The translations under genes and the position numbers were made by a program. Shown here piece by piece: positions 1 through 52,610 of a DNA stretch of 64,000 nt (its first letter is position 1; every line of letters starts with the position of its first letter). The notes under the pieces are model-generated. The model was given only the letters and a program-made list of their open reading frames with translations, did not search any database and was not told the DNA's origin. Source of the stretch: a virus; IMG/VR virus record IMGVR_UViG_3300023174_000124, positions 1-64,000 of that record; one strand, 5' to 3'.

Positions 1-167
1 GTGAAACCTAAAGAGATTAAATATATCAACAATATCATGTAAATTTTATTTGAGTCCCTAAGATAATTATGGTATAAACTATTTGATCAAATGAATCCCT
101 TTTAGTTTTTACCTTTCTTCTGAAAGGGGCAATTATTTGTTTGGTTGAGTTGAAAAACAATGGAGAA

Positions 168-1033: not shown

Positions 1034-4000
1034 CTTTTCTTCCTCAGAATGAAATATAATAACAATATTACCATTTCTATTCCTAGTGTTAAAGTTTTAC
1101 TATTACACCCACTAGGATTTCCCCTAAATCTACTTAAATTCAAATCATCTGTTATCACAGAATCTTGAACTCCCATATCTTTAACTTTATAATCTTTCTC
1201 CACCACCCTATTATCTCTCTCTTCTACTCTATAATCTCTATCTTCTACCTTATAGTCTTCCACTCCTTTATCTTGAACTACTATGTTTTTATTCAATATC
1301 CTTATTCTAAATCTCTGTTCTGTCCTCCCACCATCTCTTGTGACATAACCCTCTGTTCTATGTGTATCTTCTGCTATTAAGACTATACTAGCTTCACCAC
1401 CACCTAAATTATCTGCCACTTCCCATTCTAAAGACCATGCCCCCTCTTCTACACTTGTCTTTAATTCCATTGTAGTAGGTGCACCTTGACCTAATAAAAC
1501 TTCTATTGTATCAGTCGCTCCTTTATCTACCACCCTTATATCATATTTATACTTATTACCTGCTACTACTACACTATCAGGCACACTTATAAATTCAGGT
1601 GCTACATTCTCTACATGAACTCTTATTCTTGATATTACACCATTATGGTTTAATGATATATCATAAATCCCATCATCTTCAAATACATAACCTATTTCAC
1701 TACCATACAAGTCTTCACCATTGACTCTCCATGTATATGCCATATCTCCATTATTCTCATTATTAGAACATCTAGCATAATCTACTTTAACTGCACTTAA
1801 ACCCTCAGCCTTAAACCATACACAATCACCTTCAGATACTTGTATATTATCCACCCCATTTTCCCACTCTTCTATTTCAAAAGTTTCTATAAATGTAGTT
1901 TCTACACCTGACCAAGTATCTAATACTTTCACCGATATTGTATATACTCCACTTCTATTAAGTAAATAGGTAGTCCTATTACTTCTCCTATTCTCATATT
2001 CCCATGTGCCGTCATTATTTAAATCAAAACTATATCTTAAGTCTTCAGTATCAGACTCATTTACAAAGACTTCAATCCAAGCTGTATTTCCTATTTGATT
2101 TACATATAGGTTATCTAGTGTAGGTTCTCTATCTGTGATAATAATATCTTTTACAATCTCATTAGATTCTAAGTTATTCTTATAACCTTTCACCTTTAAA
2201 GTATATGTGCCTATATGACTATATATATGAGTAGTGAGATTATTTATAACACCATCACCCCAGTCTACAATATAATTTGTAGCATCTGATTCTATTCTTA
2301 GTTCTATATAACCACCAGCTTCTACTATCTCATTTACAGATGTAATACTAGGATTATTTTCACCTAGTATTTCTACACTTTCTATAACTTCTATACTTGA
2401 CCATGTATCTATAACTCTTACGGAGACAATATGATTAGTCAATATATCTAAAGGCTGTATTAAATTATTAGATGTTTCATTAACAATTTGTCCATCTACT
2501 TCCCATATATAAGTTAAGAGACTAGTATCTCTATCAATAGCATTACATAAGAATATATAGACATCTTGACCTTTAAAGTGATTTAGAGTGACTTCGGTGG
2601 GGGTGTCCGCAGTGACCACTGAAATAGCCATTTCACTATATTTTCCTAGTATATCTTCTACTCTTACTACTACATTTTGAGGGTTAGGTGAGTAATTTAA
2701 TTTTATAATATCACCTATAAGTTCAATTCCATCTTTATATATAGAATAAGACCATTGTTCCTCATCAGTAGCTTCTACGATAAAACTGACTAAACCACCA
2801 TAACCGACTAAGGTAGTGATATTGTTTATAACAGGGGCTAGATTTTCTCTATATGAGATTTCTTCAAGAGTTAAAGAAACTTCCCCACCACGACTATCTG
2901 TTACTTTTACAATAGGATTATAGGTGTTATAGTCAGTATAGTTATATAAAAAGATACCATCATTATTGTTTAATACAGCACCATCACCTGTTTCTAAAGT
3001 ATAGGTTAAGCTATCTTTATCAGTAGCATTTATAATAAATAAGACTTGCCAATCACTTTTTATTATACGGACACCCTCTATTATAGGTAATTCATTTCTA
3101 GTGTTAAATAACTCCGTTATTACCTTCTCTAAACCTAAGTTGTCTTTCACCTTAATATCTATATCAGTAAAGTCAGTGTTTGTCTTATAGGTATATGTAT
3201 TAAGACTGCCATTAAATACTTCTATAATGCCATCTGTGTTTATATCTATTGTATAGGATAAATAAGTAGCTAAAGGTAAATTACTAAAAGGTATATCTAA
3301 AGTGCTTATATCTACACCATCACTACTGTCTACACTAAATAAACCACTTCCCATAGAATCAAGATACTCTGTTTCATAAGGACTTGTTTCAAAGTGATAT
3401 ACATTCCCTTGATATATAAAATCAGTAGATAAGAATAGATCATAGTCATAAATATCTACACTAGCTTTAATTTTAACAATAGGATTAGGTGTAGCAAATA
3501 TATCTACTTTATACCACCCATTACCTATTTCAGTATTTACTACATCTAAGACAATAGGAGGTAAATTAAGGTGTTCTATATTAGGATTAGATATAGCAGG
3601 TGGTATATTAGGGATTTCAATATATATAGTCTTTTCACTATATAAACCACCCTCGTCAGTAGCTATAATTTTTATAGAGTCTATTCTAAAACCATCACCA
3701 TTAGGTGTATAGGTATATAAGAGGTCATTAACTTTAGTTAGAGTGCCATTACCGAATATAATTTCACCTATCGTAGTGACATTTAAGTTTTCTGGGTCAG
3801 TTGTACCACTAAGGTCAATAAGAATATTATCACTTGTATAAACAAGATTAGTTTCAGTAGAGATAATAGGAGGTAGGGTGTTAGGTAAGACATTTATAGT
3901 CATAGAAGAGTAGCTACATAGAGAGCAGTCTTTATTTTCAATATCATCTTTACATAAATTAGTCCATTGACCGTCATCACAGACTTTAAAAGGGATGGTG

Positions 4001-6189
4001 ATTTTATCAAGTGTAGTATTTAGTGTTATAGTGATAGGATTAGATATTGTTTCATAAACACCATCACGATCAGTATCATAAGAGATTTCGGTGATAGAGT
4101 CTTGAATACCTTGAGGTCTAGTAGTATCCCCAGGAAATGGTGATTGAGAAATATCTGAGTCGTAGGAATTAGAAGCATCAAGAGTTAAGGGGGCTTTATT
4201 ATATGCTGTATAGGTATTAGGTACAGCGATAGGGGCATGGTTAAATTTAGAGATTTTGATTTCAACGGAGTCTGAGTCTTCAACGATACGACCTAGATTA
4301 TCTATAGTTTGTAGGGTGATTTTTTGTTTTTTAATTTCACCCCAAGCGACATCTTGAGTATAGGTGAAAGAGAAAGTTTGGTTTAAGTCAGTAGTGGTGA
4401 AGTCCCAGATTATCTCATTTGGGTCAACAATGTTGTTATTATTAAGGTCTTCATTGCAGTTATTAGTGATGTCTATGGAACAATAAGGAAGACTAGGAAG
4501 AATATAATCAATAACATTCCACCTGAAAGATGAAATAGATACTTGAGGGTCCAGAGAATAAGACCAGCTATGATCGTAAACAACAGGTGTATTAGGAGAT
4601 ATGAGTTGAGGGGATGCTTTTGCATAGGGTTGTACCTCTAGCCAAGATTGGATAATTTGAGCAGTGACAGCAGTTCGTTCATTAGTAGAAAAAGAACCTG
4701 CCCAGGGCCAGTTCCCTGCCCAAGTCCAAGTCCCATTATTAAGTTGTTTTGAAGCACCATTAGAGTTTTTAGTGTTATTTTTGCCTGTAATAAAGAAGTC
4801 TATATACTCATTTGCCCAATGAGTTCCATTAGGTAAATAAGTTATTTCTGGAGTAAACGACCTAAGACCCTTTGTAGTAGCATAGACATAGTATAAACCC
4901 CAATGGTTACTATCAGTAAGATACCAAGATTGAATTGCATTGACAGAACTAGATACTTGAGCATTTGTATTTATCTCCTCATTTTCAGTCCATCCATAAC
5001 CTACAAGGGTATTACCTGCTAATTTAGTGCCTGGTCCGTCATAAGCACAAACACCATTAGGGCAGTGTATGGATAGCCATGTTCGTTGTTTATTTTTAAA
5101 AGAATCGTAATCTATATTATAGAATTTTCTTTTAAGGAGTCTGATAGCTTCAGGTGCCCAGCCATTAGTCGAAGCATCATCCGTTACACCTGTCATATTC
5201 ATACAAGTATAAAACCAAGCACCATCAGAAGTAGTACATTGTAATAAACCATCAATAAGATCTTGACCTATATTTTTAAGGGTGGTGTTATATATACCTG
5301 CACGACCTACAGGTGATATATAATCAGGATTACCAAAGTTAGCGAGAGGTTCAGCCCAAGCAGTAGACTCGTAACTTGCCCAAAAGAAAGCATTAAGATT
5401 ATTCAAAGCTACAAATTCCATACCTTTACTAGGAGTGCCTAAAGTATCAGTATCGGTGAAACCTATATTTTTAAGTTGCATAGTAGCAAGTATAGAGTGA
5501 AGACCACATTGAGTTAAGTTTCTATAATAAGGGTCATTATCTCTATTAGCACCATAACCATGACCTCTTCTGAGAAAGACATTAAGGGTGTGTCCTGTAG
5601 TATAGAGAGTTTGATTACCAGGAATATAACAAAGGTGTTCATCATGTAGGAGAGAGTCATTAGTTTTATGTATAGCTTGTCTAAATAGATACCACATAGA
5701 ATTATCAATGGCTCTGTTAGAATACATTTTACGAGTGTAGGATAAATTACCATCATTGCCACAATTAGCATTATTAGGGTCGTTTATATAGTTGGTGCAT
5801 ATACCGTCAACGATAATTTCAATGGGGTATGTAGCAGTAGCTATTTCTTGACCACAAGTAACTTCTACTTTAGGGAATATATAGGTATTACCGAGAGCAT
5901 TAGGGAGGGTGGTTTCGAGGTGGAGAGGTGCGAAGTAGGCATTTTTGTTAATAGAGATAGGGTTCTCATTAATGTCATTGAAATCACCATCAGCATTAAT
6001 ATCCCATCTGTAAGAGTAAGAGTTGCAATTACCACCTTCAGCAATAGCTTGTAAATGGGTGGGGAGACCATTAAGAGCTATGTGGGGGATATTGGGGTTT
6101 GATTGCACCCAGGGTATGGGTGTAATAGAGAGTGGTGTTGCTAGTAGGTGTATAGGCAACACTAATAGCAGAGGAAGTAGTGTTTTCAT
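1024..6189 (-). CDS. giant secreted/surface protein: signal peptide, alpha/alpha-barrel (squalene-cyclase-like) region, multiple PKD/Ig-like repeats, C-terminal MYXO-CTERM-like sorting signal
   Basis: N-terminal MKTLLPLLLVLPIHLLA. PKD-type motifs YSYRWDINADG, YIVDWGDG, YSFDLNNDGTWE, YVFEDDGIY. Barrel-type motifs DGAWFY and KQLNNGTW. C-terminal SGC, hydrophobic stretch, RKKR. AGGAG RBS. Confidence 0.8.
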   Translation of the reverse strand: MKTLLPLLLVLPIHLLATPLSITPIPWVQSNPNIPHIALNGLPTHLQAIAEGGNCNSYSYRWDINADGDFNDINENPISINKNAYFAPLHLETTLPNALGNTYIFPKVEVTCGQEIATATYPIEIIVDGICTNYINDPNNANCGNDGNLSYTRKMYSNRAIDNSMWYLFRQAIHKTNDSLLHDEHLCYIPGNQTLYTTGHTLNVFLRRGHGYGANRDNDPYYRNLTQCGLHSILATMQLKNIGFTDTDTLGTPSKGMEFVALNNLNAFFWASYESTAWAEPLANFGNPDYISPVGRAGIYNTTLKNIGQDLIDGLLQCTTSDGAWFYTCMNMTGVTDDASTNGWAPEAIRLLKRKFYNIDYDSFKNKQRTWLSIHCPNGVCAYDGPGTKLAGNTLVGYGWTENEEINTNAQVSSSVNAIQSWYLTDSNHWGLYYVYATTKGLRSFTPEITYLPNGTHWANEYIDFFITGKNNTKNSNGASKQLNNGTWTWAGNWPWAGSFSTNERTAVTAQIIQSWLEVQPYAKASPQLISPNTPVVYDHSWSYSLDPQVSISSFRWNVIDYILPSLPYCSIDITNNCNEDLNNNNIVDPNEIIWDFTTTDLNQTFSFTYTQDVAWGEIKKQKITLQTIDNLGRIVEDSDSVEIKISKFNHAPIAVPNTYTAYNKAPLTLDASNSYDSDISQSPFPGDTTRPQGIQDSITEISYDTDRDGVYETISNPITITLNTTLDKITIPFKVCDDGQWTNLCKDDIENKDCSLCSYSSMTINVLPNTLPPIISTETNLVYTSDNILIDLSGTTDPENLNVTTIGEIIFGNGTLTKVNDLLYTYTPNGDGFRIDSIKIIATDEGGLYSEKTIYIEIPNIPPAISNPNIEHLNLPPIVLDVVNTEIGNGWYKVDIFATPNPIVKIKASVDIYDYDLFLSTDFIYQGNVYHFETSPYETEYLDSMGSGLFSVDSSDGVDISTLDIPFSNLPLATYLSYTIDINTDGIIEVFNGSLNTYTYKTNTDFTDIDIKVKDNLGLEKVITELFNTRNELPIIEGVRIIKSDWQVLFIINATDKDSLTYTLETGDGAVLNNNDGIFLYNYTDYNTYNPIVKVTDSRGGEVSLTLEEISYRENLAPVINNITTLVGYGGLVSFIVEATDEEQWSYSIYKDGIELIGDIIKLNYSPNPQNVVVRVEDILGKYSEMAISVVTADTPTEVTLNHFKGQDVYIFLCNAIDRDTSLLTYIWEVDGQIVNETSNNLIQPLDILTNHIVSVRVIDTWSSIEVIESVEILGENNPSITSVNEIVEAGGYIELRIESDATNYIVDWGDGVINNLTTHIYSHIGTYTLKVKGYKNNLESNEIVKDIIITDREPTLDNLYVNQIGNTAWIEVFVNESDTEDLRYSFDLNNDGTWEYENRRSNRTTYLLNRSGVYTISVKVLDTWSGVETTFIETFEIEEWENGVDNIQVSEGDCVWFKAEGLSAVKVDYARCSNNENNGDMAYTWRVNGEDLYGSEIGYVFEDDGIYDISLNHNGVISRIRVHVENVAPEFISVPDSVVVAGNKYKYDIRVVDKGATDTIEVLLGQGAPTTMELKTSVEEGAWSLEWEVADNLGGGEASIVLIAEDTHRTEGYVTRDGGRTEQRFRIRILNKNIVVQDKGVEDYKVEDRDYRVEERDNRVVEKDYKVKDMGVQDSVITDDLNLSRFRGNPSGCNSKTLTLGIEMVILLLYFILRKKRCT

Positions 6190-6249
6190 AAAAACTCCTG
6201 AGAAAAAAGATACTTAAAAGTAGGGGTGAAATAAATTTAAAAAAATAAT

Positions 6250-6277
6250 TTGCAAGAATATAAAAGTATGCTATATA
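6250..6277 (+). promoter_or_regulatory. sigma70-like promoter (TTGCAA-16-TATATA, TGn extension)
   Basis: Near-consensus boxes about 35 nt upstream of an intrinsic terminator. Confidence 0.4.
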
Positions 6278-6312
6278 TGTGTATATAGGCTTTGAAGAGA
6301 ATATTAGCTTAT

Positions 6313-6350
6313 AAGGTCTAGTGTTTTAAGTAGCACTAGACCTTTTTTTT
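6313..6350 (+). terminator. rho-independent terminator
   Basis: AAGGTCTAGTGTT-ttaagt-AGCACTAGACCTT stem followed by a T run. Confidence 0.85.
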
Positions 6351-6399
6351 ATTTATATGTTTGTAATTGTATATACTTTTAAAAGAGGATTTTAAAAAA

Positions 6400-6648
6400 A
6401 TGAATCGTAGACAGTTACAAATGAGAATAGCTAATTTGAAAGCAGAATTAGAAGATATAAAAGCAGAACTATATGCTGAAGATATTTTAGGTGTAGGAGC
6501 GAATGAACACGCAGGATGGCAATATGGGGAAGGATACTTCCATGATGGAAAAACAAATGATGCTAAAGCTAAACATGAGTATAATATTAATTATTATTCA
6601 ATCGATGAAAATAAGAGTAAATTTTGGGGTGTAAAAGGTAAAAAATAG
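6400..6648 (+). CDS. small hypothetical protein (RIA-type N-terminal tag; ELYAEDI motif similar to 49872..50693)
   Basis: ATG at 6400 after an AGAGG RBS; MNRRQLQMRIANLKAEL. Confidence 0.7.
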   Translation: MNRRQLQMRIANLKAELEDIKAELYAEDILGVGANEHAGWQYGEGYFHDGKTNDAKAKHEYNINYYSIDENKSKFWGVKGKK

Positions 6649-6677
6649 TTGACTTTTATGTTAGCTGTGTTTATTAT
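6649..6677 (+). promoter_or_regulatory. sigma70-like promoter TTGACT-17-TATTAT
   Basis: Near-consensus boxes with a 17-nt spacer; predicted +1 about 6684-6685. Confidence 0.6.
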
Positions 6678-6684
6678 CATATCT

Positions 6685-6773
6685 GTAGCTTACTATCGTC
6701 TATGATAGGTTTTTCCTCTCACTCTGATATATGGTGAGGCTACGAGAAATATATCACTTACTTTAAAGTAAGT
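6685..6773 (+). ncRNA. putative structured ncRNA (three-way junction plus pseudoknot, 3' palindrome)
   Basis: P1 GTAGC/GCTAC, P2 CTATCG/TGATAG, P3 CTCAC/GTGAG. Loop TGATATAT pairs with downstream ATATATCA. Followed by an 18-nt palindrome ACTTACTTTAAAGTAAGT. Confidence 0.55.
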
Positions 6774-6774
6774 T

Positions 6775-6816
6775 AGTTAGTAGTTATCAGTTAGTAGTTA
6801 TCAGTTAGTAGTTATC
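6775..6816. repeat. 3 x 14-nt perfect tandem repeat AGTTAGTAGTTATC
   Basis: Units at 6775-6788, 6789-6802 and 6803-6816. Confidence 0.95.
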
Positions 6817-7108
6817 CGTTATCAGTATATGCTAAGTATTTAGTAGCTATGTCTAAAACAGATTGTGTTTTCTCTTCCAAAAAAGCACAATCTGTTTCCA
6901 TGACTCTATTGTGTGCAATCAATAAAATATTAAATTTCAAATCATCTTCACCAACAAATAATAAATACTTATTTGCTATATCTATTATTTCATATGTCAT
7001 CTCTTCTTCCGAGAGTTCATTAGCTGTGCCTTTATATATACTTAAAACTAAATCTTGTGCTATATTCAATAATTCAAGTTTTAAAGTAGAGAGTTCAAGA
7101 GAATCCAT
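6812..7108 (-). CDS. hypothetical protein with internal two-fold repeat
   Basis: ATG at 7108 after AAAGGA. Halves LKLELLNIAQ...IDIANKYL and LKFNILLIAH...LDIATKYL. Confidence 0.75.
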   Translation of the reverse strand: MDSLELSTLKLELLNIAQDLVLSIYKGTANELSEEEMTYEIIDIANKYLLFVGEDDLKFNILLIAHNRVMETDCAFLEEKTQSVLDIATKYLAYTDNG

Positions 7109-7169
7109 TGATGTTATCCTTTTATAAAAAGTGTGTATGTATATATAATACATAAAAGGAATATCTAAA

Positions 7170-7649
7170 ATGGAAACTATGGCACAAAAAATAGCAAGAA
7201 TTTATATTGCTAAGAAAAAAGATCAAGGTCTTCCTAAAAAATACCTTAGTGGTTTTAAAGGTAAAGAGAGGACAGAGAGAGCTAAAGAAATAGCTAAAAG
7301 AAAAAATGAGACTGACCCTAAGAAATTATATAAACCCTTTAAGTCAGATGCTGATGCTACTACTAGAAAAAGCCAATATAGTAAAACAGAAGTTGCTGAG
7401 AAAATCAGAGAAGAACTTAAAGGTACAAGTAAAAAAGATTACTTAGCAGCCGCTTCTAAAGTTTCAGGTGTAAGTAAAAGTATTTTAGAACAAGTATGGG
7501 ATAGAGGATTGAAAGCATGGACAACAGGACATAGACCTGGTGCTACTGCTCAACAATGGGCAATAGCTCGTATATATAGTTTTTTAAGTGGTGGTAAAAC
7601 ACAATCTACTGCCGATAAAGACCTAGCCGAAGAAGCAGGTCTTATTTAA
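7170..7649 (+). CDS. DUF5824-like protein (GHRPGA motif)
   Basis: RGLKAWTTGHRPGATAQQWAIARIYSF...TADKDL, a motif typical of this viral family. Confidence 0.7.
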   Translation: METMAQKIARIYIAKKKDQGLPKKYLSGFKGKERTERAKEIAKRKNETDPKKLYKPFKSDADATTRKSQYSKTEVAEKIREELKGTSKKDYLAAASKVSGVSKSILEQVWDRGLKAWTTGHRPGATAQQWAIARIYSFLSGGKTQSTADKDLAEEAGLI

Positions 7650-22371: not shown

Positions 22372-22400
22372 TTGACAGCTCTCTATTATCTATATATAAT
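22372..22400 (+). promoter_or_regulatory. perfect sigma70 promoter TTGACA-17-TATAAT with no sense ORF downstream
   Basis: TTGACA at 22372-22377, TATAAT at 22395-22400. Confidence 0.75.
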
Positions 22401-51557: not shown

Positions 51558-51586
51558 TTGACAACACTGGGCTTTGTGTGTATAAT
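51558..51586 (+). promoter_or_regulatory. perfect sigma70 (early) promoter TTGACA-17-TATAAT
   Basis: TTGACA at 51558-51563, TATAAT at 51581-51586, upstream of the 51618 gene. Confidence 0.9.
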
Positions 51587-51617: not shown

Positions 51618-52610
51618 ATGAAGTTAGTAAATAAGATAGCGATAGAAATGTTTGTCATCGCAAGTAAAACAGATTACCCATTCCTTAGAGATACCTTGTT
51701 GCCTAAACTAACAGAAGAATGTGGTGTCCCTATTCTAGTTAATGGTTTTATCTCAATAGAAGATAAAGAAGCCCTTACCCCACCAAATAGCACAGGTGCT
51801 ATTTTAATAGCTACTGAAAATACAAAATTACCCTTGTCTTTAAATAAACTAGTTTCAAGTTCTATTTTGTCTTTATCTGTTCCTGCGATCTTCACCACCA
51901 CAAGAGACCCTGTTGTTTTAAAGGAAGAGATTTTTGAAGCCTTCCCACCTTTTAGTATATATGCTGAAACTGCCAAAGCACTAAAAAAAGGAATACTCCC
52001 ATCAGCCTTTACTTTTGAAAGTTTTAAAAATCTCCTATTAGAAAATAGAGATTTACTCTTTAAATTTTTTCCTCTCTCAGAAGATCAATTAAATCCTAAT
52101 ACCAATAAGAAAAAACAAGGTAAATACAAAGAAAACATGGATTTACTTGTTAAGTTTGTTGAACAAAAAGTACAAGAGTTATGTTCACCTACACTTGTTC
52201 TAACTCCTCATTTACTTTTACAATATTTTAAAGATGTTTTCTCATTCTTAAATGAAAATCCAAATGATACTTTTACAATAGAGTTTATGAAAACTTGGTT
52301 ACATGGTGTTCATTTAACATACCCTGAAAAAGATATGTCTTTTTATGAAATGCTTTTCACTGATCACTTTCAGTGTGAGATTCCTCTTATATATAGAGAA
52401 TATTTAAATGATCTACTACCTAAAGTAGTTAATGAGACCCCTATTGATGATACTAAGAGTATTGAATTTGATACCTTTAACATTTCTTATACTCATGGGG
52501 TTTCTCTTTCAATTAAAGAAGTTATCTCATCTAGCTTAAAAACTAATGGATCAATTTCTATTGATTCCCTAGAAAATAATAAAATTATCAATTTGCTATT
52601 GACAGAATAG
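51618..52610 (+). CDS. putative early protein
   Basis: AAGGAG RBS; C-terminal domain resembles that of 52665..53963. Confidence 0.8.
   Translation: MKLVNKIAIEMFVIASKTDYPFLRDTLLPKLTEECGVPILVNGFISIEDKEALTPPNSTGAILIATENTKLPLSLNKLVSSSILSLSVPAIFTTTRDPVVLKEEIFEAFPPFSIYAETAKALKKGILPSAFTFESFKNLLLENRDLLFKFFPLSEDQLNPNTNKKKQGKYKENMDLLVKFVEQKVQELCSPTLVLTPHLLLQYFKDVFSFLNENPNDTFTIEFMKTWLHGVHLTYPEKDMSFYEMLFTDHFQCEIPLIYREYLNDLLPKVVNETPIDDTKSIEFDTFNISYTHGVSLSIKEVISSSLKTNGSISIDSLENNKIINLLLTE

Follow-up and report, generated by a model that had tools for sequence, protein, structure and literature searches.

The stretch at positions 6649-6811 of a phage genome fragment very probably holds a real structured RNA gene, and the first 67-72 nt of its predicted transcript can be assigned with good confidence to a three-way junction. 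Our preferred reading, held tentatively and at slightly under even confidence, is that this small RNA gene is transcribed on its own, belongs to a new family and acts in cis as an antisense RNA on the convergent 98-aa gene. A cis-antisense regulator with a structured 5' domain is favored because the layout matches that of oop and cII in phage lambda.

Genomic setting and homologous loci

The window, i.e., the whole 64,000-nt stretch analyzed, comprises the first 64 kb of an 84,859-base IMG/VR virus record (CheckV completeness 27%) and has a GC content of ~31%. It is judged to be a fragment of a large tailed phage because it encodes a family-A DNA polymerase and a weak match to the tail-sheath C-terminal domain (22.8 bits against a Pfam cut-off of 26.9). 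The sequencing runs that contain its DNA are labeled as lake and freshwater metagenomes. The four DNA runs examined yielded short, near-identical contigs, with part uncovered in each run, and they contributed no new variants of the RNA core. The genes around the element are as follows.

start 6189, - strand: gene for a 1721-aa PKD-repeat protein
6400-6648, + strand: 82-aa gene upstream of the RNA unit, its stop codon abutting the -35 hexamer
6649-6811, + strand: RNA unit region, occupying all 163 nt between the convergent 82-aa and 98-aa genes
6812-7108, - strand: 98-aa gene, convergent with the RNA unit and its constant neighbor
7170-7649, + strand: DUF5824 gene

No ORF of at least 30 aa is present in 6649-6811 on either strand. 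Scanning metagenomes with an alignment of the 98-aa protein family recovered six loci with 67-91% protein identity, and all six carry the RNA element downstream of the 98-aa gene and on the opposite strand. We refer to the window, L011 and L012 as group A and to L013-L016 as group B. The 82-aa gene is the immediate upstream neighbor of the promoter in the window, L011, L012 and L016; L013-L015 have another gene, in the opposite orientation, between the 82-aa gene and the promoter. In every one of the seven loci, the RNA unit and the 98-aa gene point toward each other.

A second conserved unit was observed in this neighborhood at 6230-6352 (+ strand), between the start of the 1721-aa gene and the 82-aa gene, and it is also present in L011, L012, L013 and L016. 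It consists of an A-rich block, a promoter-like TTGCAA-16/17-TATATA and ~65 nt with a conserved middle, and it ends in a canonical intrinsic terminator (6313-6344 plus a T-run). The terminator hairpin shows a compensatory change in L012, and a different hairpin followed by a T-run stands in L013 and L016. This unit either encodes a further small RNA or serves the 82-aa gene as a terminator-type leader.

A conserved promoter

The element is preceded by a promoter of the following kind.

6649-6677, + strand: sigma-70-type promoter with TTGACT at 6649-6654, a 17-nt spacer and TATTAT at 6672-6677; predicted transcription start at G6685

Seven nucleotides separate TATTAT from G6685, which is the first base of helix P1. 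The promoter scan ranked the 6649 site top with 10/12 matches; it returned 10 sigma-70-like sites in 6100-7400 against 7.4 ± 2.6 expected, and the pattern TTGACN-16..18-TANNNT shows no genome-wide enrichment (12 found vs 19 in shuffles). The geometry is kept in all seven sequences, with an invariant TTGACT, a spacing of 17 nt, a -10 hexamer of the form TAnnnT (TATTAT, TATATT or TACAAT) and 7 nt to the GTAGC of P1. Between groups A and B, the spacer and the 7 nt before P1 are almost wholly replaced; in the spacer, the window and L013 agree at 1 of 17 positions by manual count. Because the hexamers keep their form, their spacing and their distance to P1 despite a changed spacer sequence, this pattern is, judging from the alignment, the signature of a functional promoter and of an independent unit.

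The position between convergent genes in the window would also fit a 3'-end structure or terminator of a flanking mRNA, either of the 82-aa gene on the + strand or of the 98-aa gene on the - strand, and the palindrome that follows the core could terminate transcription in both directions. We consider this explanation highly improbable. In L013-L015 the upstream gene lies divergently on the other strand and the promoter and core are still kept, and therefore the element is not a 3' UTR. There is also no T-run, and 8 of the 78 alignment cells of the junction helices are unpaired on the - strand, as opposed to 1 of 78 on the + strand.

Two perfect copies of the consensus TTGACA-17-TATAAT were observed elsewhere in the window. 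The one at 22372-22400 faces an AT-rich repeat block without a sense ORF, and the one at 51558-51586 precedes the gene at 51618 and its ribosome-binding site.

The RNA core probably folds as a three-way junction

The core consists of three helices, their junction strands and a short tail.

6685-6756, + strand: RNA core, 72 nt in the window and 67 nt in group B
6685-6689 / 6739-6743, + strand: P1 (GTAGC/GCTAC)
6690-6692, + strand: J1/2
6693-6698 / 6703-6708, + strand: P2 (CTATCG/TGATAG), loop 6699-6702
6709-6717, + strand: J2/3
6718-6722 / 6734-6738, + strand: P3 (CTCAC/GTGAG), 11-nt loop 6723-6733
6744-6748, + strand: A-rich linker, always 5 nt long
6749-6756, + strand: tail

P3 joins P1 without a junction nucleotide. 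Taken alone, the sequence of the window is suggestive only: folding 6685-6775 as a single sequence gives z = -2.59, yet the structure obtained is an extended hairpin different from the junction, and folding 6685-6830 with the repeats included is no better than shuffled sequence (z = +0.39). The weight of the assignment comes instead from the six homologs. RNAalifold recovers P1, P2 and P3 on a plain MAFFT alignment, which was not fitted to any structure. A covariance model, R1, built from the three group A sequences finds the four untrained group B homologs with 54.8-57.5 bits (E ~1e-10); searches with R1 of 133 kb, of the remaining phage record and of a 196-kb relative returned no further match.

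In an alignment fitted to R1, and hence biased toward the structure, of seven sequences (five distinct) from closely related phages, 77 of 78 cells of the junction helices are paired (98.7%), and four pairs, two in P2 and two in P3, are changed on both sides. The covariation score of 0.313, as compared to 0.147 in shuffles, was reached by none of 500 shuffles, and controls in which the helices were slid pair only 26-62% of their cells. P1 is invariant in all sequences and so carries no covariation information. The contrast between segments is largest when the window is compared with L013, where identity is 10/10 in P1, 11/11 in the P3 loop and 8/8 in the tail, but 5/20 in P2 with its loop; P2 nevertheless forms a 6-bp hairpin at the same place in both, with those 5 of 20 columns in common. 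Even within group A, the closing pair of P2 is G-U, U-A or A-U. The single-sequence minimum free energy fold of the window, when imposed on the homologs, pairs 84.4% of the cells with no pair changed on both sides, and it was rejected against the 98.7% and four double changes of the junction. The + strand is favored because seven G-U cells pair there only, which leaves 70 of 78 cells paired on the opposite strand. Conservation stops sharply after the last tail base, 6756.

A conserved reading frame could in principle account for part of this conservation, as a micro-ORF of 11-18 codons starts at ATG 6731 (MVRLREIYHLL in the window) and its ATG-GTG start is found in the same register in all seven sequences, two of which were translated. 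We regard it as extremely improbable that the element exists to encode this peptide. A purine-rich ribosome-binding site, as the neighboring genes have, is missing upstream of the ATG; residue 3 changes radically (R, L, V or G) in a manner that fits the pairing needs of P3; the invariant sequence reaches well upstream of the ATG; and neither the length nor the C-terminus of the peptide is conserved.

A candidate pseudoknot between the P3 loop and the tail

The P3 loop and the tail contain complementary segments.

6725-6732, + strand: 5' arm of the candidate pseudoknot, TGATATAT, in the P3 loop; partner ATATATCA at 6749-6756

TGATATAT is the exact reverse complement of ATATATCA over 8 nt, and such a loop/tail complement arose by chance in 70 of 20000 mononucleotide shuffles. 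All eight pairs are invariant across the five distinct sequences and so show no covariation. On geometric reasoning, the 5-nt linker would be tight for the tail to reach the loop if P3 stacks on P1. Our judgement on whether the two arms pair as a pseudoknot is evenly balanced.

An earlier note, made from the letters of this DNA, had described most of these features. The ORF-less unit, the TTGACT-17-TATTAT promoter with a predicted start at about 6685 on the first P1 base, the coordinates of P1, P2 and P3 and the exact 8-nt complement are all present as the note gives them. The three-way junction that it had drawn is upheld by P2 and P3, whose pairing is kept through changed sequence in the related phages to which the note had pointed as a check. 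Its proposal of an early-expressed decoy, antitoxin mimic or ribozyme is taken as a guess, and it overlooked the constant convergence of the unit on the 98-aa gene.

The palindrome and tandem repeats

Two repeated elements follow the tail.

6756-6773, no strand: perfect 18-nt palindrome, 100% self-complementary (-5.5 kcal/mol, z -1.3)
6775-6821, no strand: tandem repeat with a period of 14 nt, 3.4 copies, 96% matches and a 7-nt sub-period

Both had been listed by the earlier note as following the pseudoknot, and both are present in the window, but comparison with the relatives gives no support for counting them in the conserved unit. A small hairpin starting at the last tail base occurs in five of the seven loci, but all of these are weak (z -0.4 to -2.3); where the window has its palindrome, another hairpin is seen in L011 and no convincing one in L012 or L014. 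The palindrome is thus lineage-specific, and it may act as a weak bidirectional terminator. Tandem arrays are found in four of the seven loci, with units of 14, 14, ~32-39 and 16 nt, and are absent from the other three. In the window, the array fills the gap to the 98-aa gene and overlaps its last codons and stop (6812-6814), with which it shares sequence; the C-termini of the homologs differ. One contig of sequencing run X2 lacks 21 nt at 6797 (a single contig, depth 3.7). In L014, the array 3' of the RNA tail (at locus positions 3088-3186, - strand) has 5.4 copies of a 16-nt unit unrelated in sequence to the 14-nt unit of the window. Tandem arrays thus seem to have formed at this position on more than one occasion, and from the comparison of loci we read the array as a slippage-prone spacer rather than as iterons or an antitoxin array.

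A ToxI-like type III toxin-antitoxin array was considered and rejected, as the units are locus-specific with lengths of 14-39 nt, three of the seven loci have none, and no ORF on the same strand follows. An iteron-type origin or set of repeated DNA-binding sites was likewise rejected, given that the repeat unit is not conserved among relatives and the copy number differs in the X2 contig.

A broader version of the latter idea is that the conserved element acts as DNA, with a real promoter in which the TGATATAT...ATATATCA inverted repeat and the tandem repeats are protein-binding sites (an operator, a roadblock or an iteron-type origin). The invariance of both arms is compatible with DNA binding, and tandem repeats adjoin the arms in four of the seven loci, but the repeats differ in unit or are missing in relatives. 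Moreover, the pairing of P2 and P3 is kept through sequence change, the seven G-U cells would be mismatches in symmetric DNA, and the inverted repeat lies at +41 to +72 rather than over the promoter. We therefore rate this explanation as improbable.

A conserved hairpin in the convergent gene and a possible antisense role

The 98-aa protein has no Pfam, PHROG or PDB match (best PDB profile E = 1.3), and its best atlas feature match (0.81, to DUF2560) is a lead only. One source names one of its homologs 'MinE', a name for which we found no support. The distance from the RNA tail to the stop codon of this gene ranges from -3 nt to 114 nt, with the core overlapping the stop codon in two of the seven loci (L013 and L016); in these two, the three final bases of the RNA tail are the TGA stop read from the other strand. 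A terminator scan found no terminator-like site between the tail and the 98-aa gene, nor is there a T-run. The first strong structure past the core lies inside the gene.

6856-6897, no strand: 16-bp hairpin in the 98-aa gene (codons ~72-86), 100 nt downstream of the core on the + strand

This hairpin has a folding energy of -16.7 to -23.2 kcal/mol in all seven loci. In an ungapped MAFFT alignment, 93.8% of its cells are paired and four pairs are changed on both sides, a covariation score that was reached by none of 500 shuffles. The paired changes include amino-acid-changing ones (D/S to A/A) as well as one synonymous pair, and because these substitutions keep the hairpin, the alignment shows selection on nucleic-acid structure inside the 98-aa gene. 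Synonymous-site conservation shows no local rise at the 3' end of the gene (0.43-0.74 vs 0.33-0.72 elsewhere). The hairpin lacks a U-tract and was not called as a terminator, and its G-U cells do not choose a strand (four favor + and three favor -).

An antisense mechanism is accordingly offered as a tentative proposal, with clearly less than even confidence, and the internal hairpin suggests, by analogy, a role like that of OOP. Under this antisense proposal, a host-type RNA polymerase would start at the sigma-70-type promoter, with the first base of P1 as the first base transcribed. The first 67-72 nt would fold into the three-way junction, with P1 closing P2 and P3, and the invariant 11-nt P3 loop would pair over 8 bp with the invariant tail, five A-rich nucleotides after P1. 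Without a canonical terminator, transcription probably continues in antisense through the 3' end of the 98-aa gene and reaches the 16-bp hairpin. The RNA would then act in cis on the 98-aa mRNA, where a duplex or loop-loop contact could lead to cleavage or to destabilization of the 3' end. The compact 5' domain may be a stabilizing or factor-binding module, and the 16-bp hairpin may be either the 3' stem-loop of the RNA or the point of loop-loop contact on the mRNA. A conserved structured domain outside the overlap is not something that an antisense RNA requires, which counts against this reading, and the variable spacer between core and gene argues in the same direction, as it suggests a loose link.

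According to the main rival, the RNA may instead be a stand-alone, trans-acting structured RNA that ends just after the tail, at a small hairpin or by processing, and whose loop, J2/3 and tail bind a protein, ligand or RNA (as a decoy, sponge, aptamer or ribozyme), with the 98-aa gene being a mere neighbor. The most conserved parts, namely the loop (11/11), the tail (8/8) and P1, all lie outside the antisense overlap. Conservation breaks off sharply at 6756, the distance to the gene is variable, and the small hairpin at the last tail base in five of the seven loci would offer an end. But the terminator scan called nothing at this position, and the hairpins, missing from the other two loci, are weak. 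Among the Rfam ribozymes and riboswitches, none fits the element with an E-value cut-off of 10. When the RNA was scanned for duplexes with 76 translation-start regions in the 85-kb record, the strongest reached -31.1 kcal/mol; 30 shuffled RNAs reached -30.6 at best and -25.2 on average, so that no trans target stands out. The strict linkage to one gene in all seven loci would also be left unexplained. Overall, we find a trans-acting role somewhat unlikely.

Comparison with known RNAs and distribution

In phage lambda, oop RNA has its end at a hairpin, and its overlap with the part of cII that encodes the C-terminus is 52 bases long (PMC5869508). Similar to OOP, the RNA described here has its own promoter, kept in seven of seven loci, is convergent on one small gene in seven of seven, and is accompanied by a conserved hairpin in the C-terminal coding part of its putative target. 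Unlike OOP, it has a conserved junction domain of 67-72 nt whose overlap with the gene is nil or 3 nt only. It further differs in its variable spacer, in a hairpin without a U-tract, in an overlap that is predicted from the layout, and in having no sequence relation to OOP.

The fold also recalls the exonuclease-resistant RNAs (xrRNAs) of flaviviruses. In these, P1 encloses P2 and P3, the apical loop of P3 complements the strand 3' of P1, and a 5' strand upstream of P1 pairs into the junction, which forms a ring around it. The likeness is one of topology only, with P1 enclosing P2 and P3 in a junction found by RNAalifold and covariation, and with a complement of the P3 loop located 3' of P1. 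Unlike in the flaviviral RNAs, the predicted transcript starts at P1 and has no 5' strand to thread; with the start site as predicted, the 7 nt between the -10 hexamer and P1 are not conserved, which leaves no conserved 5' strand. No Rfam model matches, and the host is bacterial.

We found no Rfam family for the element, in agreement with the earlier note, which had recognized none and had suggested a covariance-model search. Across the whole window, Rfam 15 gives two tRNA matches only, at 168-314. Within 6685-6756 there is no match at E up to 10 (the nearest, TCV_H4, scores 17.2 bits vs 50 and lies on 6633-6679), and the element in L012 and L016 has none either. ARAGORN and the Rfam tRNA model find no tRNA or tRNA-like gene at the element. 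Hammerhead, twister, pistol, preQ1-like and CRISPR-repeat-mimic RNAs were considered, and the Rfam scans were negative for them. With regard to the two tRNA matches, the one at 168-233 (37.1 bits) lies upstream of tRNA-Glu (241-314) and was not called by ARAGORN.

Beyond the six homologous loci, the known distribution is narrow. A large protein database contains five relatives of the 98-aa protein in addition to the protein itself. A blastn search of 6300-7200 against the INPHARED phage genomes gave no match, and in IMG/VR neither single-protein scans with the 98-aa and 82-aa proteins nor a scan with the 98-aa alignment found relatives. Pattern scans found no true copy in IMG/VR, where the window's own record possibly lies outside the scanned set, and no copy in GTDB genomes (one for each of 185,579 prokaryote species). 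Three IMG/VR pattern matches were dismissed as chance, as they lack P1, P2 and the promoter and a later scan returned none; the sole GTDB match, in a Nitrosomonas MAG, lies in a coding region with 12.5 bits and was rejected. The neighboring DUF5824 gene leads to a 195,689-base relative, L002 (69% identity), from which the RNA element is absent by both DNA and covariance-model search. Upstream of the DUF5824 gene in L002, tRNA-like genes were seen by eye on the - strand at 3240-3330 and 3660-3740.

PMC10690425 reports 8495 candidate structured RNAs from IMG/VR with a mean length of 67 bases, each required to match in at least three unique IMG/VR regions. Our element resembles these candidates as a short intergenic phage motif of ~67 nt with covariation, in the same size class. 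It differs from them in that pattern scans, which may not have covered its own record, returned no true IMG/VR copy. The full-text literature searched, the supplementary motif lists of PMC10690425 aside, contains no description of the element. These searches point to a new RNA family whose general kind is familiar and whose known distribution is narrow, in a clade of uncultured freshwater large phages.

Significance

To our knowledge, very few non-coding RNAs of large phages have been assigned a role, and the phages described here are known only from metagenomes. With its small size (67-72 nt), clear limits, covarying helices, conserved promoter and constant partner gene, the RNA is directly testable. 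A more far-reaching reading, which we consider rather unlikely, is that it represents a new compact class combining a three-way junction with a pseudoknot, whose invariant loop, J2/3 and tail would close into a ring-like fold. This fold would bind a particular factor of host or phage or a metabolite, or form a nuclease-resistant 5' cap. If the cap is real, it would set the lifetime of an antisense regulator and would be the bacterial-virus counterpart of the xrRNA principle. If the RNA is an OOP-like antisense RNA only, it would be a tidy but ordinary addition. If, on the other hand, the pseudoknotted junction is a stabilizing cap or sensor on an antisense RNA, it would constitute a new design of gene control in phages.
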